A stretch of 17,390 nt of DNA from Nitrososphaerota archaeon (GTDB lineage Archaea > Thermoproteota > Nitrososphaeria_A > Caldarchaeales > Caldarchaeaceae): NCBI GenBank assembly GCA_038891515.1, contig JAWAEB010000032.1, forward strand, positions 1-17,390. The letters run 5' to 3'. How positions within the stretch are numbered: the first letter of the stretch is position 1; each line of letters opens with the position of its first letter. Shown here piece after piece: positions 5,197-17,327 of this stretch. The notes under the pieces are model-generated. The model was given only the letters and a program-made list of their open reading frames with translations, had not been told where the DNA came from and did no database searches. A program made the translations under genes and the position numbers.

Positions 5197-5324
5197 CATC
5201 CAGCCACAAGCATGTCTGACCCCTACAAAATCATCATGCGCCCCACTCCAACCAACATCCACTGAATACGAGCTACGATAGGCAGCTCAGATTAGTGCAG
5301 TGTTAACATGGGTTCGTGAATCTC

Positions 5325-5342
5325 TGATATAAATTTATATCA
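5325..5342. repeat. Perfect 18-bp A/T-rich palindrome TGATATAAATTTATATCA
   Basis: Verified base by base as its own reverse complement. It lies at the truncation point of the ATPase pseudogene, and its function is unknown. Confidence 0.9.
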
Positions 5343-5571
5343 CCTTCAAAAGCTCGATTTCGACAACGAGGGAGAACTCAGCTAAAATTGTTTTTACTTC
5401 AGCGTTTGGAACTAAAAGTAGGGCCCATGCTTATCTTTCTAGAATTCTTGAATGAGTCTAGTTTTTCCAACTCTCCTTTGACCGTAAAGGAGCATGAGAG
5501 CCGCCCTTTTCTTGGTAAGAAGTCCATTGTGCTTGCAGTTCATCTCATCTATCAACGAATTGTAGAATCAT
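5343..5571 (-). pseudogene. Decayed, truncated archaeal ATPase (PF01637 / Arch_ATPase-like AAA) gene fragment
   Basis: The reverse-strand translation from ATG 5571 gives MILQFVDR*DELQ. After a frameshift it reads AALMLLYGQRRVGKTRLIQEF* (Walker A), followed by several more in-frame stops. Only about 75 codons remain of a family that is usually 350 aa or more. Confidence 0.55.
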
Positions 5572-5763
5572 GGTTGTAACAATCTTGATTGTAACATCTA
5601 AGCTTTACTAACCATGCTAAACTTTGCTAGCATAATGCCATCGAAAACCAACCCCCATAATTAGTACGTTGAAGTTATCAGGTTTACATAATGCTATCGT
5701 CTCTACCCGATCTCCTCTAGGAGGGACTGAGCACGTGATTAGCTGATTTTGTCAAGTGCTAAG

Positions 5764-6093
5764 ATGAAAGGCAGTGACATAATCATAGGTGCTCATGTGA
5801 GAGATAGGGAGTTCGCCTACAGGTTCGCTGAGCCTCTAGCTCGGGTCCTGAATAGGAATCCACCGAGGCCGATACCATTAGAAGCCGGGATGTTTCTGGT
5901 AACTGTTCAATCAAAGATTCTCCACGACCTACTCCGAAAAACCATAGTGAATACGACGATTCGTCGAACACTGAAGAATGTACCTGTAGCTTTCTGCGGC
6001 GTTTTTCTACCACCTATACATCAAAGCGGAAACCAGACTAAGCTTCTACAAGAAAATAGGAACTACGATTCGGAGAAAACAGCAGCGACTTGA
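5764..6093 (+). CDS. Hypothetical ORF (109 aa from ATG 5764) in the lower-GC decayed zone; possibly non-functional
   Basis: An open frame only, with no motif I recognise. Composition differs from the surrounding genes, and a 76-aa antisense ORF overlaps it. Confidence 0.2.
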   Translation: MKGSDIIIGAHVRDREFAYRFAEPLARVLNRNPPRPIPLEAGMFLVTVQSKILHDLLRKTIVNTTIRRTLKNVPVAFCGVFLPPIHQSGNQTKLLQENRNYDSEKTAAT

Positions 6094-6205
6094 ATATCTA
6101 AGGCTACGCGGGTTGCTGGAGACACCGCCCACTAAGCCATCCCCCTCTCACCCTATTATTTCCCATATAAGGAATATGTTCTACCCAGTTATTTCCTATA
6201 CAATC

Positions 6206-6281
6206 TGGGGCCGCTGGGATTTGAACCCAGGATTTCCAACGCCCCAGGCTGGAGTCTTAGACCAAGCTAGACCACGGCCCC
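6206..6281 (-). tRNA. tRNA-Pro (anticodon GGG), no intron, CCA not encoded
   Basis: The reverse complement folds as a canonical cloverleaf. Acceptor GGGGCCG/CGGCCCC, D stem GTCT/AGAC, anticodon stem CCAGC/GTTGG with loop CTGGGGC, T arm CTGGG-TTCAAAT-CCCAG, discriminator A. A TATA-like ACATAAAAC (complement of about 6305-6313) sits about 27 nt upstream. Confidence 0.92.
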
Positions 6282-6569
6282 TCCATGCTTACAGTGCTTG
6301 GCAGGTTTTATGTTTGGCCCTGAGGTGCTGTGGAGCCTTGGTCAGGCTGGCTGGGTGTACATGGTCTTCACATTGCTGTGGGTTGCACGTCCCTGAACAT
6401 TAACGGAATCGATTAAGCAATCATAAAAGCTTAGATGGGAACGCCGACAAGCAGTACGACTGCCATCTCCCATGTAGTTAAGACGTGCTTTATCTCTTGA
6501 GAGAAAATCCTAACACTAGCGGTGGCTGTGAGGTTGGTGATGGCTCGCGTTGGTGGGAAAACATCTAGG

Positions 6570-7181
6570 CTAGACATATTTCTGCTCGGATGGGCACCAG
6601 TATTTCTGATACTGTGGGACATACTGGAGCTGGGCTCCACAGCTGGGGCAGAAGGGACCCTGTGCGGCTGGCTGGGGTGGCGGAGGCGGGGGCGGTGAAG
6701 TAATACCCACGGGGCCTGCGGCTGGTTGTACAGGTGCTCTACCGAAGAACGCCTTGACATGTGGCCTAGTCAAGTAGTAGATTATTATCACATAGATCAC
6801 AATCGATATGACTAAGCCGACGATCATGCCGACGATCAAGGCCCCACCAAACTCGGTTCCTGCGTAAGGGGCTACTTGTGAGAGGGTTATTGCGCCTATT
6901 ACAAGACCTATAACAAGTGAGATTATTATCCATGCCAGAACAAACGTATAGTATCTGCCCATTATCATCATGACGCCGACCAATAACCCCACTATGCCGA
7001 TCACGAGGTTTACAGAGCCCAGCACCATGCCTTGTGCTAGGCTCGTCGCGCCGCCGGAGATACCGAGAATGCTGCCGATGATCTGGAGGATGGCTATGAT
7101 CAATAGTCCGACTGGCCTCTTCCTAGCTGGTGCTGCTGCCGGTGGGCCTACAGGATAAGCTTTATGAAAACTTATTTTCAT
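6570..7181 (-). CDS. Uncharacterised 4-TM membrane protein with poly-Pro linker and C-terminal Cys-rich (zinc-ribbon-like) tail
   Basis: 203-aa ORF with four hydrophobic Gly/Ile/Val-rich helices. These are followed by SPPPPPPPQPAAQGP (6654-6698) and the tail FCPSCGAQLQYVPQYQKYWCPSEQKYV* (6570-6653). A TATA-like CTTATATGT is centred 25 nt upstream of ATG 7181. Confidence 0.8.
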   Translation of the reverse strand: MKISFHKAYPVGPPAAAPARKRPVGLLIIAILQIIGSILGISGGATSLAQGMVLGSVNLVIGIVGLLVGVMMIMGRYYTFVLAWIIISLVIGLVIGAITLSQVAPYAGTEFGGALIVGMIVGLVISIVIYVIIIYYLTRPHVKAFFGRAPVQPAAGPVGITSPPPPPPPQPAAQGPFCPSCGAQLQYVPQYQKYWCPSEQKYV

Positions 7182-7628: not shown

Positions 7629-7955
7629 ATGACAGAAGGCATGATAGGCTCAGCCTTTGACAGTGATGGACTGGACTACATATACTATGGCGCCATAGCC
7701 GCAGCTGTTGCGGCGCTCTTCACCATGATAGCTATGGTGGCCGGAGGAAGTGTGGCGGGTGCTGTGATAGGGGTTTTGGGTGGACTGGCTTTTTTGGGAG
7801 CCGGAGGACTGTGGGTGATTGGCTTCGGAAGATATAGAGCGTATTACAGGGCTGCAATGGGTTATGGACCACCTGTTCAGCAGGCGACGTTCCCTGGGCC
7901 CGCACCGCCACCTCCACCGCCACCACCGAGCCAGTCAAGCCGTGAACAACTATGA
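7629..7955 (+). CDS. Small 2-TM glycine-zipper-like membrane protein with poly-Pro C-terminal tail (paralog A)
   Basis: The in-frame ATG at 7629 or 7641 is more plausible than the listed 7458 start, which overlaps the upstream gene. The TTTTTATA box at 7610-7617 fits a leaderless start at 7641. The protein has the motif DGLDYIYYGAIA, two Gly/Ala-rich helices, and the tail GPAPPPPPPPPSQSSREQL. Confidence 0.7.
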   Translation: MTEGMIGSAFDSDGLDYIYYGAIAAAVAALFTMIAMVAGGSVAGAVIGVLGGLAFLGAGGLWVIGFGRYRAYYRAAMGYGPPVQQATFPGPAPPPPPPPPSQSSREQL

Positions 7956-8182
7956 CACAGCAAAATGATGGACTGGACTACATATACTATGGCGCTATAG
8001 CACTTCTGGCTGCGGGCCTACTCCTATTCATCGGGTTCATAGCCGCCGCCGCAGGCGGTGGAGTGACTGCCGCCGTTCTCAGCGTGTTGGGCGGCTTCGC
8101 CTTGCTGGCCTTTGGTGGGCTCTGGTCCTATGGGTTCATGTTACACAGGTTGCATGTGAGGCAGTATTTGGTTAGACGCTAG
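7952..8182 (+). CDS. Small 2-TM glycine-zipper-like membrane protein (paralog B, lacks the Pro tail)
   Basis: Its start overlaps the stop of paralog A (ATGA at 7952-7955). It shares DGLDYIYYGAIA...VLGG.A.L..GGLW..GF with paralog A. Confidence 0.7.
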   Translation: MTQQNDGLDYIYYGAIALLAAGLLLFIGFIAAAAGGGVTAAVLSVLGGFALLAFGGLWSYGFMLHRLHVRQYLVRR

Positions 8183-9315
8183 CGGCTCTCCCTAGGAGCA
8201 TATCCATGGCCGTATCCCCAGAAATACTCATCCACAAGCGCTTCTCTAGCCATCTTGCTGAGATGGTATACGAGGACAGGCCCCCAGATGAACACCACTA
8301 TGAGGGCTATTGTGCCGAGGAGATCGGCTATGGTGTTCCATAACATGTGGGTGAATGCCGAGAAGGCGAGGGCCGGTAGTAGGGCTGAGAAACGGAGGGC
8401 CAGCCCATGAACCTTGAGGTAGCCCATCCAATATCCTATTAGGCCGGTGGTGAACATGTGCATGGACATGGTTATTATCCTCACAGGTATTATGAGGGGT
8501 GCAGCCTCTAGGCTTCTAGCTATGTAGAGTATGTTCTCTCCGAAGGCGAATCCAAGTCCTGCAGCGGCCCCATACAATAGGCCGTCCAGATGGTCGTTGA
8601 ACTCTGACCTTAGCTTGGGGCTTGTGGCTATCAGGTATACGCCCAGAATCTTGATGGGTTCTTCTGTGAAGCCTGCCAGCCCGGACCACCCCACCGTTCC
8701 TATAAGAAGGTTGTTGATGATTATCGCTGGAAGGATGGAGAATACACCCCATCCCCAAGCAAGGGCTACAAGCCAAACCGGCTCCGGCTCCAGCCTGTCA
8801 TTCATCCTCATCCATGCTAGGAAGGCCATGGCCGGTAGTAGGGCTGCGACTATCGAGGCAGGTAACATGGCAGCGAGGCCCTGTAAGTCCAGGACAATAG
8901 AGGCTGTGGCGAGACCTAGGAAGAAGATGATTAAGGCCAAGGTCAAGTAGTGGCCGGCGCTCGCTATTGTCTGGAGCCCTAACCTCTCATAAACAGCAGG
9001 TGATGCCCTGTATATCGGCCCCCTCTTCTTGGTGAGGAGCCTGTAGAGCAGCATCACATCGGCCAGCCCCCCTCTAGGCCTCGTGGACGGGTCTGTGTGG
9101 TACTGCCCCATGGTCATGGATGGGACGTAGCTGGTGAGCTTCTGCCTCTGTATTGGATATCCGCATCTTGGACATGCGTTCAGGTGGGCTGGGATTTGGC
9201 TTCGGCAGTTAGGGCATAGAACTTGAGTCAGTGGTGCTCCACATCTGAAGCAGTAGAGGCTGTTGGGCTGGTTAACAAAACTACATGAATGGCATGTGAT
9301 GGCTGACATAGCCAC
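8179..9315 (-). CDS. PrsW-family intramembrane protease with N-terminal double zinc ribbon
   Basis: The N-terminus has two CxxC...CxxC knuckle pairs (CHSCSF..CFRCG; CPNCRS..CPRCG). The polytopic body carries PrsW-type motifs FTEEPIK, GLGFAFGENILY, MHMFTTGL and FTHMLWN. A TATA-like CTTTTATG sits about 34 nt upstream. Confidence 0.85.
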   Translation of the reverse strand: MAMSAITCHSCSFVNQPNSLYCFRCGAPLTQVLCPNCRSQIPAHLNACPRCGYPIQRQKLTSYVPSMTMGQYHTDPSTRPRGGLADVMLLYRLLTKKRGPIYRASPAVYERLGLQTIASAGHYLTLALIIFFLGLATASIVLDLQGLAAMLPASIVAALLPAMAFLAWMRMNDRLEPEPVWLVALAWGWGVFSILPAIIINNLLIGTVGWSGLAGFTEEPIKILGVYLIATSPKLRSEFNDHLDGLLYGAAAGLGFAFGENILYIARSLEAAPLIIPVRIITMSMHMFTTGLIGYWMGYLKVHGLALRFSALLPALAFSAFTHMLWNTIADLLGTIALIVVFIWGPVLVYHLSKMAREALVDEYFWGYGHGYAPRESR

Positions 9316-9362: not shown

Positions 9363-10038
9363 GGCACTGTCAACTAAGCTTTTCAAGATGGGTCTAAGGC
9401 CTGACAGTTACCCCTCTCTGCTGTGCATGCATTTGAATAGATAATTGAATCGTTCTCAAGACTGTTCAGAACCCACAGGTAAAACCCTGTCGAGAAGGTC
9501 TATACAGCAATATTATTTATTGGGGGGCTTAGTCTTGGGGATCTGTCTGAGAGGTACTGTCTGACCGGTGCTTCTGGGGGGAGTGTCAGGAGATGGATCC
9601 ACAAGCTAGGGATATTATTTAAGCCTGGGAGGATTGTTGTAGTAGACGAGACCGTTGAGAAGATAATAGATGTGGATTTTAGGGAGATAATGGCTGTCTA
9701 TGTGTCTAGGGGTAGATCAATAGGTACAGCCCTAGCATTCCTTGGAAGGGTCCTCGCTACATGTGATGGCAGACCTCTCATAGTCGTTGATAGGGGGTCC
9801 ATGGTATCCATGGGCCCTAAAACGCCTAGGAATAAACAATATCCACGAAACATTCGGTGAAAGGAACATTATAGAAAGATGGTTTAGGGAGCTGAAGGAA
9901 AGGACAGGGAGGTTCTACAACAACATAAACTCAAAGGTTGTTAAGAGCATGGAGGACATAGTGGCTGCGGTCGCACTGGTACACAACATGCTGCTAGGAA
10001 ACAAGAGAATAAGAGGTGTAATACCAAGTTGACAGTAC
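9363..10038 (+). mobile_element. Decayed IS6-family insertion sequence (copy 1)
   Basis: The left end GGCACTGTCAACTAAG (9363-) matches the GGCACTGT terminus characteristic of IS6/IS26-type elements. The right end is the imperfect inverse ...AAGTTGACAGTAC (to 10038). It is flanked by the imperfect direct repeat TAACCAAAGG (9353-9362) / TAACAAAGG (10039-10047). Internal transposase remnants are present. Confidence 0.7.
9427..10032 (+). pseudogene. IS6-family DDE transposase pseudogene (stops, frameshift, small deletion)
   Basis: ATGCATTTGAATAG gives an early stop. The later frames read VVVDETVEKI..DVDFREIMAVYVSRGRS...DGRPLIVVDRG and then, after a frameshift, PWYPWALKRLGI..HETFGERNIIERWFRELKERT. 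Compared with copy 2 it lacks the RLGERVYLWSA segment. Confidence 0.7.
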
Positions 10039-12294: not shown

Positions 12295-12723
12295 ATGTCC
12301 GGTGTGCCTCGGGCCAAGCTCATAGGCATGCAGGTCTACAACCCCGACGGATACCTTGTCGGCACTGTTCAGGATGTGGAGCTACCCATCGGCAGCGGTG
12401 AGATAAGCCTACAGGTACTCACTAGACTGAATACGGTTGAGCGGGTGCCTTGGAGCAACATAGCTAACGTGGGTGATATAGCAATATTAAAGGAGAAGAT
12501 AGATATTAGAGCACCAGAGCCAGCTGCTCCTCAGCCATCACCAGCAGCAGGCGCGCCGCCGGTAGCGGGTTATCCCCAAGCTCCACCGCCCCAGCCTGGT
12601 GGAGTGCTTTCAAAGCTTCCCTTCGGGAAGAAGAAGCAGATATGTCCCACATGTGGTAGGGAACTATCTTGGATAGAACAGTATCAGAGATGGTACTGCT
12701 ACAACGAGGGTAAGTACGTCTAG
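12295..12723 (+). CDS. PRC-barrel domain protein with poly-Pro linker and C-terminal Cys-rich (zinc-ribbon-like) tail
   Basis: The N-terminal 70 aa fit the PRC-barrel pattern (AKLIGMQVYNPDGYLVGTVQDVELPIGSGEISLQVL). A Pro/Ala-rich linker occupies 12511-12600, and the tail ICPTCGRELSWIEQYQRWYCYNEGKYV* occupies 12640-12723. A TATA-like AAGTTTAT sits about 28 nt upstream of the ATG. Confidence 0.8.
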   Translation: MSGVPRAKLIGMQVYNPDGYLVGTVQDVELPIGSGEISLQVLTRLNTVERVPWSNIANVGDIAILKEKIDIRAPEPAAPQPSPAAGAPPVAGYPQAPPPQPGGVLSKLPFGKKKQICPTCGRELSWIEQYQRWYCYNEGKYV

Positions 12724-13910
12724 CCAAGGTGCGGTGAGATTAGAACCCCCTTCCTCACTAGCCTCTCCAACACCGCCCTTAGGTGGGGTTTAGCGGAGAA
12801 TCTGATATATAGATAGGTGGCTGTCATAGATATTGTGAGAAGTAGGTGGAAGACCAGTCCCAATAGGATGAGAGCAAGTAATAGGTCGCCGTCAGCAACA
12901 ACGAAGGTGAAGCTTATGGGTGCGAAGATGAAAGTGTATATCTCCACCATCTCTTCGGCGAGACTGTGGATGGCTGGCCGCATCATAACACGTCTAACAC
13001 TATCGAACATCCTCACGCCCAAATCCTCATAGAGCCATAGAACTGGCCCCACGTAGAGGGAGCCTGCCGCGATAGCCACGATTGAGGCTAGCGCCGCACC
13101 CGCAGTAGCAGCGAAGGGGTCACCCCCAAACAATTGTATGTTTAGAAGGTCCAGCACACTGGATACTGTGGTGGTCACACCCAGTCCGAAGGCCATCGGA
13201 TAGTATGAGCGGGAGACGACGTTCATGAGTGTAGTCTCCTCAGGGGACGGAGTCTCCACAGACATCAGCCTCACCCTAGTCCCCCCCTTCCCAACCCGTC
13301 TCATCAGCAGGTAGGTTGTGAAGCGGTCAGCCAGCATGTGCCAGAAGACCCATGTGATTATGGCGGGAAGGAGATACCTGACGTAGAAGCTCTGGGTGGA
13401 CGCTATGGGTAATAGTGGAATATAGAGGGCGGCTATGACCGCTATGTCTAGGTTATCCTCGTGTGGGTTAGGCGGTGGCCTGACACCATGCTTGGAGGCC
13501 CGCCTATTCACTATGATCCCCGATACTACACCTGCCAACATGAGGGCCGGCCCCACCGACCATGTGAGGGATAGTAGTGTTGCCGTCGGGATGAAGGATT
13601 CTGGAGTCCCCCAAAGGATTGATGTGGTGAAGGCTGATGTGGAGAGTATCAGGCCGCCTGAGGAGGGGTAGAGATACCACTTTCTCATGGGATGCAGTCC
13701 GCTGATGAGCCAGCCGAGTCCGAAGGCTGCGACAGCTGGGCCGAGGTCAAACTGTAGTATATAGATCAGTGATGAGAACCATGTGGCCAGCACCATGAGC
13801 AAACCAGTTCTAGCAGCATATTCTAGGGAAAAACCTAATGCGATAAGTATGGCACCAACCAGCATGATCGCTAGACCTGTCTTGGAGGATGGCTCAACCA
13901 CTCCTACCAC
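12720..13910 (-). CDS. Uncharacterised polytopic membrane protein (about 10 TM)
   Basis: 396-aa ORF, strongly hydrophobic, with a basic cytosolic loop (NRRASKHGVRPPPNPHED). The GTG start at 13910 overlaps the upstream gene by 7 nt; an alternative ATG lies at 13865. I recognise no family. Confidence 0.7.
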   Translation of the reverse strand: MVGVVEPSSKTGLAIMLVGAILIALGFSLEYAARTGLLMVLATWFSSLIYILQFDLGPAVAAFGLGWLISGLHPMRKWYLYPSSGGLILSTSAFTTSILWGTPESFIPTATLLSLTWSVGPALMLAGVVSGIIVNRRASKHGVRPPPNPHEDNLDIAVIAALYIPLLPIASTQSFYVRYLLPAIITWVFWHMLADRFTTYLLMRRVGKGGTRVRLMSVETPSPEETTLMNVVSRSYYPMAFGLGVTTTVSSVLDLLNIQLFGGDPFAATAGAALASIVAIAAGSLYVGPVLWLYEDLGVRMFDSVRRVMMRPAIHSLAEEMVEIYTFIFAPISFTFVVADGDLLLALILLGLVFHLLLTISMTATYLYIRFSAKPHLRAVLERLVRKGVLISPHLG

Positions 13911-15256
13911 CTCAGCAATCCCACCCTGTACATGAGAGCTAAGGCAAGCAGAATGGACAGGATACCCATGAACGTCGGATGTGAGTTAAGGAAGAATTGG
14001 ATGGTCTGACTTCTCTGCTGTATCGAGGGGGCACGTTGTAAAGCAAGATATGTGGAGAGGAGGGAGGCGCGCCACCACCTGTTGACGAACTCATCCGATG
14101 GTAGGACACCCCTCTCGACGAGTGGAAAATATTCACCTCTTACAGAAACTTTGGACATAGCTAGGGAGACAACATCATGAAGCTCCTGTATCTTGCCCAC
14201 GACTTGCTCAAGCTTCAGCAGGAGTGTAGGAAACCTGAGGTCAGCTATCATAATGCGGCGGCCAGCCACAGCCGCAATCTCCTCACCCGGGATAAGCGGG
14301 TCCAAGGGATAAACATCAAACGCATCAACTGGAAGCAACAATATCCTGTCGCCAGCCCTCCACATGGCAGCTATGCTCTTGGCCAAGCTTATGGCCTGCT
14401 CCCCTGCATATCTCGACTGCTTTAGATGGATGTTCTCAGCCGCATCTACCAACGACGCGAGAGACCTGAGCAGGTCCTGATAGCTATCAGAGTTCTTGGG
14501 CAGGGACAGCGATGCGTTCACCACATATTCTATATGAACCGCCCACAATGCCACCAGTTCAACAGGAGGCTCCAAACCAGCCTCATGGGCTGCACCCAGT
14601 AGCTGGGAGAGCTGGGAGAGAGAGCTAGTGAGTCCAATATATCCCCTTGCAGAGTAGTTTATTATATCATCCATATGCTGTGTATATTCTCTCAGCGCCT
14701 CCGATACATCAGGTGTGAGCGGCTGGCCACCGGTCATGAATGAGATGCGGGAGGAGAGGGTCAGGAAGGCGGCCTTCGAGGTGGGTGGCGCCCACCCCAG
14801 CCTCCTCTCAAGACTCTGCACCAGCTTAAGCATGTTAGCCTTACTTCTCAAATCCTTGGTGAGGCCATAGTGGAGGGAGAGAAAATTGGCCACCGTCAAA
14901 TGTGTAATAAGATTCTCAGCATAGGAGCTGCTACTAACATCAAAACCCAAATCTACCCCATCCTCTCCCTCGACCCGTCCATTAACCTGGGCCGCCACCC
15001 TATTCAATAGCTGAAGGGACTCAATGTCACCTAGACCCAAGTGCAGTAGGGCGGCCATGGATCCCACCAGTGCATGGCTCCTGAGAGAGCGGACAGGATC
15101 GAAACTAGCTGAGACGCTTCCATCAGATTCTACAATCCCAGTGACATATGCTAGGTCGGCTCTGAGAACGTCCCGAACGCCCGCCCCCTCCCCATTCACA
15201 ACCGGAAGAAAGAACAACGTAATCGTGAGAAATACAGGCACCAGTTTTGCTCCCAT
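13904..15256 (-). CDS. Uncharacterised secreted, C-terminally membrane-anchored protein (helical-repeat-like ectodomain)
   Basis: 450-aa ORF with an N-terminal signal-like segment (LVPVFLTITLFFLPVVNGEG) and a C-terminal TM (FMGILSILLALALMY). A TATA-like CTTATTAA is centred 28 nt upstream of ATG 15256. I recognise no family. Confidence 0.7.
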   Translation of the reverse strand: MGAKLVPVFLTITLFFLPVVNGEGAGVRDVLRADLAYVTGIVESDGSVSASFDPVRSLRSHALVGSMAALLHLGLGDIESLQLLNRVAAQVNGRVEGEDGVDLGFDVSSSSYAENLITHLTVANFLSLHYGLTKDLRSKANMLKLVQSLERRLGWAPPTSKAAFLTLSSRISFMTGGQPLTPDVSEALREYTQHMDDIINYSARGYIGLTSSLSQLSQLLGAAHEAGLEPPVELVALWAVHIEYVVNASLSLPKNSDSYQDLLRSLASLVDAAENIHLKQSRYAGEQAISLAKSIAAMWRAGDRILLLPVDAFDVYPLDPLIPGEEIAAVAGRRIMIADLRFPTLLLKLEQVVGKIQELHDVVSLAMSKVSVRGEYFPLVERGVLPSDEFVNRWWRASLLSTYLALQRAPSIQQRSQTIQFFLNSHPTFMGILSILLALALMYRVGLLRW

Positions 15257-16707: not shown

Positions 16708-16781
16708 GCCTGGGTGGTATAGCCTGGTTAGCATCGCCGGCTGTCGCCCGGTGGACCCGGGTTCAAATCCCGGCCCAGGCG
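16708..16781 (+). tRNA. tRNA-Asp (anticodon GUC), CCA not encoded
   Basis: Acceptor GCCTGGG/CCCAGGC, anticodon stem GCCGG/CCGGT with loop CTGTCGC, T arm CCGGG-TTCAAAT-CCCGG, discriminator G. The D stem (GTAT/GCAT) pairs poorly in my hand fold, which is the one non-canonical point. Confidence 0.82.
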
Positions 16782-16829
16782 CTTCTAGATATGCATTATT
16801 AGTGTGAGAGGGTTAAGGGGAAAGGATTA

Positions 16830-17327
16830 GGGGGAGGGCTGGTCAGGTGGTGTTAGACGTTCTTCGAGGCGTTGTTGTTTCCTTTTGATTGTGAATCCTA
16901 CGAGTTTAGCATTTCTGTCCTTCATCCTAGAATGGACCTGCCCTTAGAGGCGTATACCGCTATTATCTCGCCTGTGTCAACGTCTATTGCTGACCATAGA
17001 TAGACCCTTTCGCCAAGCCTCTTCTCGACAGTCTCATCCACTGCGACCAGCCTCCCAGGCTTACGTATAGGGTTGAAGGCTCTCCTCAGCCTATGAACCC
17101 ACTCCCTAACACTCTCCCTAGAAGCATCTGTGAAGCCATATCTCTCAGATACGTCCCTAAGGCTAAGGCCAGCTAAGAATAAGAGAGCAGCGTAAGCCTT
17201 CTCACGAGGACTATGAAACCTGAAAAGCCTAGACAAGACGTCAACGAGATAGTCGAAGACATGCATGACCAGATGAGAACATCTCAGGCCATAGGCCTAT
17301 CCGAGAAAGACTTAAGTTGACAGTGCC
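16830..17327 (-). mobile_element. IS6-family element, copy 2, internally deleted and lacking a recognisable second terminus
   Basis: The intact terminus CTTAAGTTGACAGTGCC at 17311-17327 is the reverse complement of GGCACTGTCAACTTAAG. The lower boundary is only approximate, because no matching inverted repeat is visible between 16782 and 16900. Confidence 0.6.
16922..17266 (-). pseudogene. Truncated IS6-family transposase (N-terminal 114 aa only)
   Basis: VAVDETVEKRLGERVYLWSAIDVDTGEIIAVYASKGRS fits the IS6 DDE first-Asp region (DET..K..G...YLW.AID). The frame stops right after GRSILG, and the downstream sequence resumes near the C-terminal LK[DE]R region, implying an internal deletion of the catalytic core. 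Confidence 0.7.

Follow-up and report, generated by a model that had tools for sequence, protein, structure and literature searches.

Membrane tethering of archaeal division and envelope proteins is under current study, the proteins concerned being SepF, CdpA, CdpB1-3, and CdpC. In bacteria, the FtsZ anchor ZipA is built from an N-terminal transmembrane (TM) segment, a flexible linker rich in Pro and Gln, and a small C-terminal domain that binds its partner. In H. volcanii, CdpC ends in a C4 zinc ribbon that follows a long disordered linker and binds FtsZ1 at ∼0.1 µM, and mutants in the zinc ligands lose this binding (bioRxiv 10.64898/2026.07.16.738847). The same study recovered CdpC with CdpB1 as bait and found CdpC to be almost without homologues in Thermoproteota, its distant homologues being multi-zinc-ribbon proteins in Thermoplasmatota (bioRxiv 10.64898/2026.07.16.738847). 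A survey of archaeal PRC proteins reported that 93% contain PRC domains only and mentioned zinc-ribbon fusions just in passing, for few proteins. FtsZ, CdvB, and CdvC are encoded by Ca. Caldiarchaeum subterraneum, and CdvA is not (PMC3082918).

Here we analyze a stretch of DNA of 17,390 nucleotides (the window) from a Nitrososphaerota metagenome-assembled genome (MAG) close to Candidatus Caldarchaeum, in which a PRC-barrel protein and a small membrane protein end in matching Cys-rich tails. To the study of membrane tethering, this locus contributes a large zinc-ribbon family missed by all Pfam and NCBIfam models searched; a fusion of the ribbon to a predicted CdpB-type barrel across Caldarchaeales, Bathyarchaeia, Thermofilaceae, and Nezhaarchaeota; and a PRC-ribbon gene that clusters with genes for membrane proteins bearing the same ribbon on poly-Pro linkers.

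Matching tails on unrelated proteins

The first carrier is a 203-residue protein encoded at 6570-7181 on the minus strand, in which four predicted TM helices are followed by a disordered Pro-rich linker and, at the C terminus, the ribbon. Its tail, C178-V203 (6573-6650, minus strand), presents C178, C181, C196, and E199, closes with KYV, and is followed by a TAG stop codon (6570-6572, minus strand). The linker, which includes PPPPPPP and runs from the last helix to the ribbon, is encoded at 6651-6743 (minus strand), as judged from the translation and from AF2 pLDDT below 50. The second carrier is a 142-residue protein (12295-12723, plus strand) with a PRC barrel, a linker, and a C-terminal ribbon; its tail, C117-V142 (12643-12720, plus strand), presents C117, C120, C135, and E138 ahead of its own KYV and a TAG stop codon (12721-12723, plus strand). 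The C termini read ...PPPPPPPQPAAQGPFCPSCGAQLQYVPQYQKYWCPSEQKYV in the membrane ORF and ...GKKKQICPTCGRELSWIEQYQRWYCYNEGKYV in the PRC ORF. A sequence-only reading of this DNA had placed 26-residue Cys-rich tails at both gene ends, and both were found there with the same spacing, C-x2-C-x14-C-x2-E-x-K-Y-V-stop. The first knuckle is C-x2-C in each (CPSC and CPTC); a second C-x2-C knuckle is absent from both, its place being taken by C-x2-E. Identity between the tails, put at 14 of 26 residues in that reading, came to 13 of 26 on recounting, and 47 of 81 nucleotides of tail DNA are identical. The DNA strings described as shared, CAGTATCAGA in the tails and GTCTAGCC at the gene ends, do occur in both genes, but the former merely encodes Q-Y-Q-(K/R). 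Ahead of the tails the two proteins are unrelated, as had been proposed: one has four predicted TM helices and the other a PRC barrel.

Homology of the tails was assessed with a hidden Markov model (HMM) built without either window tail, from PRC-type tails in other genomes alone, and run on 330 window ORFs. The PRC protein tail was recovered at E=9e-22 and the 4-TM protein tail at E=1.9e-10, and no further ORF among the 330 matched. Because a model from other genomes finds both tails and nothing else in the window, the two are homologous, with a match far beyond chance. Judged by sequence, each tail is a copy of the same small autonomous domain. Nearby (8179-9315, minus strand) is the gene for an intramembrane protease of the PrsW family (Pfam PrsW-protease, 6.5e-27) that carries a double zinc ribbon at its N terminus. 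Its two ribbons, which the sequence-only reading had set beside the tails, are of a different type: they match Pfam DZR at 1.2e-8 but the tail model at only E=4.1. Membership of the tails in the PrsW ribbon type was rejected, as the tails have no DZR match.

In the membrane protein, AF2 places helices at residues 24-49, 53-74, 78-106, and 110-137, with a short helix at 140-146, and pLDDT falls below 50 at 154-173 in the linker. No Pfam family matches the protein, and its orthologues are 50-67% identical to it. Clusters of basic residues lie before helix 1 and after helix 4; given the even number of helices, the positive-inside rule would therefore make the tail cytoplasmic. YYLTRPHVKAFFGK is the hallmark of the family to which the membrane domain belongs, and the Pro-rich linker is conserved across this family. 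Since some of its members end in this ribbon, others in a different ribbon type, and others in poly-Pro alone, the ribbon and linker are modular, in agreement with the sequence-only reading. A tRNA-Pro(GGG) gene lies at 6206-6281 (minus strand), ∼290 bp downstream of the poly-Pro ribbon gene, within a 1.3-kb AT-richer stretch (5200-6500; GC 0.44) that has no convincing ORF.

The 142-residue protein matches Pfam PRC at residues 6-66 (24.3 bits against a cut-off of 21.2) and is 100% identical to a protein of an NCBI MAG, encoded on a 32-kb contig. An AF2 model made with 37 homologues gives pLDDT of ∼88 for the barrel and 85-91 for the ribbon, and the linker (residues 74-111) is mostly below 50, specifically at 74-95 and 100-111. 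By sequence and predicted fold, the closest PDB structures to the barrel are CdpB1/CdpB2 of A. fulgidus (8onw and 8qzo), with Foldseek E=1e-4, target TM-score 0.74, and rmsd 1.9 Å for 8onw_D and hmmsearch E=8e-9 for 8qzo_A. The modeled barrel thus resembles CdpB1/CdpB2, a cell division family.

Breadth, fold, and metal site of the ribbon family

A 32-position tail profile was searched against 1.84 billion cluster representatives at a threshold of E≤1e-3. It matched 1632 representatives, 288 of them at E≤1e-10, from archaea and some bacterial MAGs; the tail is not confined to the window genome. A word-indexed search with a 42-residue tail profile matched 2 proteins. A scan of metagenomes with a GC-rich DNA pattern added 120 carriers, none recognizably haloarchaeal. 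Named sources of carriers include MAGs of Thermoplasmata and Euryarchaeota, together with a few from bacteria that are labeled WOR-3 or Desulfuromonas. Among the best 150 of the 1632 matches, ribbon copies number 1-9 per protein, mostly 2-9, and TM-like segments are found in 68 of the 150 proteins; many carriers are small membrane proteins, and many have 1-6 TM segments. SAP is the commonest non-ribbon partner domain (24-25 of 141 proteins), and PRC is found in 6 of 141. An M48 peptidase, an MMPL transporter bearing six ribbons, coiled-coil single-pass proteins, and an archaeal AAA ATPase are among the other partners. The tail of most PRC-ribbon orthologues is a canonical CPTCGKELSWIEQYQRWYCYNCGKYV, and a related Nitrososphaerota MAG (P0238) encodes a third type of carrier, a coiled-coil single-pass protein whose tail is nearly identical.

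The idea of a C-terminal tag held insofar as the tails are a shared unit; however, only 42 of 480 ribbon instances are C-terminal in multicopy proteins, and the unit is better called a domain. A Pro cluster lies upstream of the ribbon in only 60 of the 480 instances. On this count we rejected the view that poly-Pro universally accompanies the ribbon or is its ligand; it characterizes the membrane carriers rather than the domain itself.

The ribbon signature is C-P-x-C-G-x2-L-x-[YFW]-[IV]-x2-Y-x-R-[WYH]-[YW]-C-x2-[C/E/D]-x2-Y. Beyond the ligands, Y14 (92%), R16 (81%), and Y25 (99%) are conserved, as are W17 and Y18. AF2 predicts a matching pair of beta-hairpins in both tails, with pLDDT of 85-91 in the PRC protein (strands 123-127, 132-135, and 140-141) and 70-75 in the membrane protein, where the strands at 186-196 follow the same pattern. 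We infer that the window ribbons bind metal. The sequence-only reading had called for comparison with Pfam zinc ribbons, and neither tail reaches any Pfam or NCBIfam cut-off: those of Zn_ribbon_6, DZR, Zn_Ribbon_1, DUF7575, HVO_2753_ZBP, Ribosomal_S27, and PRK14890 are all missed. The best curated models give 11-15.5 bits on the window tails and 21.5 bits on a canonical homologue tail, for which the cut-off is 33.2. Tandem copies do match the generic Zn_ribbon_6 (best E=5e-18) and DZR (best E=7e-10) models. Membership in a curated ribbon family was rejected, every cut-off being missed by single tails. No solved PDB structure is related to the ribbon by sequence, and a literature search found no paper describing it. 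By its profile matches, the ribbon is a widespread zinc-ribbon family without a model of its own in the curated libraries searched.

Across the 480 instances, the fourth ligand position is occupied by Cys in 394 (82%), Glu in 64 (13%), Asp in 20 (4%), and another residue in 2. Among PRC-ribbon orthologues of 80 species it is Cys in 45, Asp in 28, and Glu in 7, and the codons are TGY in 45, GAY in 28, and GAR in 7, with no intermediates. The 4-TM protein orthologues mostly have Glu, with Cys in one (P0218). A change from Cys to Asp takes two nucleotide changes and one from Cys to Glu takes three; since intermediates are essentially never seen despite this distance, selection for a ligand-competent side chain is likely. 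Glu and Asp states also cluster within proteins, 21 all-Glu/Asp proteins being observed against 2.2 expected. Both carriers have the same state in the window, HR01, and L082 (Glu) and in L081 (Cys). In Bathyarchaeia loci, Cys, Asp, and Glu are mixed in neighboring genes, and an organism-wide switch from Cys to Glu was rejected; there is no simple genome-level rule. The earlier suggestion that Glu replaces the fourth ligand in a conserved manner is thus upheld to the extent that the replacement is no accident, but CxxC is the norm, both overall and among the PRC orthologues. Judged by how Cys, Asp, and Glu are distributed over the 80 species, C3E is a variant that recurs and is probably under selection; it is neither the family norm nor unique to the window genome. 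LIM domains, in which a terminal Asp ligates structural zinc, provide a precedent for a carboxylate in place of the last Cys or His ligand, although their fold and spacing differ from those of the window ribbon. Clean alternation of Cys, Asp, and Glu at one ligand position constitutes a natural experiment on structural zinc sites.

Gene neighborhoods of the carriers

PRC-ribbon orthologues were found by a genome scan in 80 species loci, distributed over Caldarchaeales, Thermofilaceae, Bathyarchaeia, and Nezhaarchaeota, and 10 kb were searched on either side of each. In 14 of the 80 loci, one or two further ribbon genes were found, all within 2.3 kb of the PRC-ribbon gene despite the wider search. 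These extra carriers are membrane proteins of 110-220 residues with 1-4 TM segments and a PPPPP linker, and the ribbon forms their very C terminus. Such clustering was seen in two distant lineages; in several Caldarchaeum loci the PRC-ribbon gene stands alone within 10 kb on either side. Ribbon subtypes are also conserved across phylum-level distance, with C-Y on barrels and C-P on many membrane proteins. The 5.5-kb block that separates the carriers in the window encodes the PRC-ribbon protein, a methyltransferase, an LPG-synthase-like membrane protein, the PrsW protease with its DZR ribbons, a 117-residue protein, two 2-TM proteins, and the 4-TM ribbon protein, and it is kept in two relatives (L081 and L082). 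Association among carriers, which the sequence-only reading had anticipated, is thus seen both in the clustered loci and in conservation of the window block. That reading had opposed a tag to a generic ribbon family with canonical CxxC in most members and no association among carriers; CxxC is indeed canonical in most members, but the carriers are genomically associated.

At a Pelearchaeum locus (L010), the co-directional gene order is p450, mem396, PRC-ribbon, 4TM-ribbon, 1TM-ribbon, and the 4TM-ribbon protein is 40% identical to that of the window. The three ribbon genes are followed by a gene for a fourth small membrane protein (L010 11874-12467) that has a linker rich in Pro and Gln and ends in a ribbon of another type (Pfam Zn_Ribbon_1/Zn_ribbon_3), which suggests that similar scaffolds exchange ribbon types.

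The two 2-TM proteins of the block are paralogues with a DGLDYIYYG motif (7641-8182, plus strand); they lie between the ribbon genes and have a DGLDYIYYGAIA start, and PPPPPPPP closes the first. In Bathyarchaeia, a 2-TM protein whose N terminus has DGLD (L039 12498-12830, minus strand) carries a poly-Pro stretch and the ribbon. Beside the PRC-ribbon gene, two unannotated genes (12720-15256, minus strand) encode a 396-residue polytopic membrane protein and a 450-residue protein with N- and C-terminal hydrophobic segments, neither of which has a Pfam, NCBIfam, or PDB sequence match. By tblastn synteny, these genes adjoin the PRC-ribbon gene in 12 of the Caldarchaeales-type loci (L001, L003, L004, L007, L008, L010, L011, L013, L014, L016, L081, and L082), and in several genomes they are co-directional with it. 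In the window, the PRC-ribbon gene and the gene for the 396-residue protein are convergent and overlap by 4 nucleotides (12720-12723), which hold both stops, with GTCTAG on both strands. Short ORFs resembling the C-terminal and N-terminal halves of a transposase were found at 9672-10032 (plus strand) and 16922-17266 (minus strand). One interrupts the block between the PrsW gene and the LPG-synthase-like gene, at a site that is unoccupied in L081 and L082; the other adjoins a tRNA-Asp gene (16708-16782).

Candidate functions and comparison with known systems

In the mechanism that we propose, the ribbons of both proteins would lie in the cytoplasm on a disordered Pro-rich linker, which follows a four-helix membrane domain in one protein and a CdpB-type PRC barrel in the other. 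The ribbon would serve as a protein-protein docking module at the inner membrane face, where the barrel protein and the small membrane proteins would meet a common cytoplasmic partner or one another, much as ZipA or haloarchaeal CdpC presents a binding domain on an extended flexible linker. A docking domain that is cytoplasmic and tethered by its linker is our best reading, and we give it an even chance. Of the docking or targeting tag first suggested, the shared modular domain and the clustering of genes are established here; the cytoplasmic location, the docking itself, and any specific partner are what we infer. That clustering covers just a minority of the loci, the 14 of 80 described above, counts against the docking reading. 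If the ribbon does dock, its 26 residues could be used as bait to find the partner and to list the membrane proteins that are co-recruited.

By analogy with haloarchaeal CdpC, FtsZ is a lead for that partner. A more specific proposal, which we consider doubtful, is that the ribbon is a filament-binding tag (for FtsZ, possibly for ESCRT-III/CdvB) related to the FtsZ1-binding ribbon of CdpC. Were this so, the small poly-Pro membrane proteins would be ZipA- or CdpC-like membrane anchors, the PRC-ribbon protein would combine a CdpB-type barrel and a CdpC-type ribbon in one chain, and a previously unrecognized division or envelope complex would be present in Caldarchaeales and Bathyarchaeia, with Glu or Asp for Cys as a tolerated or tunable variant of the metal site. 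With FtsZ, CdvB, and CdvC all encoded in Ca. Caldiarchaeum subterraneum, a barrel-plus-ribbon protein could plausibly serve either system. However, PRC-ribbon orthologues are found in Thermofilaceae MAGs too, and their presence in a group that to our knowledge lacks FtsZ weakens the case for FtsZ. Partner domains as diverse as a peptidase, a transporter, and an ATPase make it unlikely that the whole family has a single division-specific partner. A tubulin-signature scan placed ftsZ ∼7 kb from multi-ribbon carriers in only 2 loci (L131 8968-11298 and L203 1090-2202, metagenome contigs of the family with SAP, ribbons, and 2 TM segments) and, in one Bathyarchaeia locus, a tubulin-signature ORF at ∼9 kb from the PRC-ribbon gene; proximity to FtsZ was rejected as evidence with so few loci. 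In the family with SAP, ribbons, and 2 TM segments, a conserved 338-residue gene product is always encoded next after the carrier.

It is improbable, though worth weighing, that the ribbon binds nucleic acid and that its carriers tether chromosome or RNA to a membrane or barrel protein. SAP domains are DNA binding, and their place as the commonest partner speaks for this idea, as do the conserved aromatic and basic residues Y14, R16, W17, and Y18. The nearest structural match found by Foldseek is the zinc ribbon of RPA (27 residues at 1.5 Å, not significant), and over the full length, ribosomal eS31/S27ae comes nearest in sequence (E ∼0.02, below significance). But these similarities all fall short of significance, no nucleic acid genes are conserved beside the carriers, and partners such as the M48 peptidase and the MMPL transporter give no reason for nucleic acid binding.

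We consider it similarly unlikely that the ribbon has no shared function and is a generic, easily shuffled structural cap, its distribution reflecting domain promiscuity only. The very wide range of partners, the reach of the family into some bacterial MAGs, and the related membrane proteins that bear other ribbon types or none would fit such a cap. They have to be set against the tight clustering of ribbon genes around the PRC-ribbon gene in two distant lineages, the strong conservation of the nonligand surface residues Y14, R16, and Y25, and the retention of the C-Y and C-P subtypes across phylum-level distance.

Less probable still is a peripheral module for binding membrane or lipid, by which soluble carriers such as the PRC barrel would be anchored at the membrane. 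Surfaces rich in Trp, Tyr, Arg, and Lys occur in interfacial membrane binders, and the ribbon has such a surface; TM-like segments are frequent among the best 150 matches, and tandem copies weakly match FYVE (19 of 141) and C1 profiles. These profile matches, however, arise from Cys patterns in tandem repeats, single ribbons remaining below the cut-off, and the long disordered Pro-rich linker of the integral carriers points the ribbon away from the bilayer, an arrangement that would hardly suit a lipid binder. Finally, both genes continue in frame past TAG as P-R-C (CCT AGA TGT at 6561-6572, minus strand; CCA AGG TGC at 12721-12732, plus strand), the three nucleotide differences all being synonymous third positions, but readthrough of TAG to supply the missing fourth ligand from the downstream Cys is exceedingly improbable and was rejected, since P-R-C is absent from Glu-type orthologues (V*MWESS and V*TGRREG in L082, and no Cys in Bathyarchaeia Glu and Asp types), TAG is the main stop in the window (12 of 18 plausible ORFs) and so the one that this genome prefers, and the bases in the PRC gene encode the H-L-G-stop C terminus of a convergent overlapping gene (12720-13910). 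Homologues with the canonical Cys end at the same position, and we take the shared P-R-C to be coincidence.

A docking domain on a flexible linker, the reading that we favor, can be placed among known systems at several levels. At the level of the ribbon, Zn_ribbon_6 (PF07191), DZR (PF12773), Zn_Ribbon_1, and Ribosomal_S27/eS31 likewise have two knuckles, of which the first is CPxCG, and two predicted beta-hairpins. In contrast to these curated families, the window family has its own aromatic signature, Y-x-R-W-Y-C ... K-Y, and replaces the fourth Cys by Glu or Asp in ∼17% of copies, including both window tails. At the level of the barrel, CdpB1/CdpB2 of H. volcanii and A. fulgidus are nearest to the N-terminal part of the 142-residue protein, but the A. 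fulgidus CdpB chains in the PDB have PRC domains alone, unlike the barrel-plus-ribbon chain of the window. CdvA joins its PRC barrel to a coiled coil and a C-terminal ESCRT-III-binding peptide, whereas the window protein has a barrel without a helical region, followed instead by a disordered linker and ribbon.

At the level of whole-protein architecture, the comparison with ZipA is an analogy only: the proteins have no sequence or fold relationship, and the C-terminal domain of ZipA is not a zinc ribbon. The likeness to CdpC (HVO_0399, D4H025), the membrane anchor of FtsZ1, is one of architecture: a part that binds the membrane is joined through a long disordered linker to a small ribbon at the C terminus (residues 304-346 in CdpC). 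The membrane part of CdpC is an amphipathic helix in a C3H ribbon, in place of which the window proteins have four TM helices or a barrel, and its C-terminal ribbon is C4, whereas the window tails are C3E. Both window proteins share with CdpC the disordered linker (pLDDT below 50) ahead of the C-terminal ribbon, and the tail profile, too, finds multi-ribbon proteins in Thermoplasmatota, the group that holds the distant homologues of CdpC.
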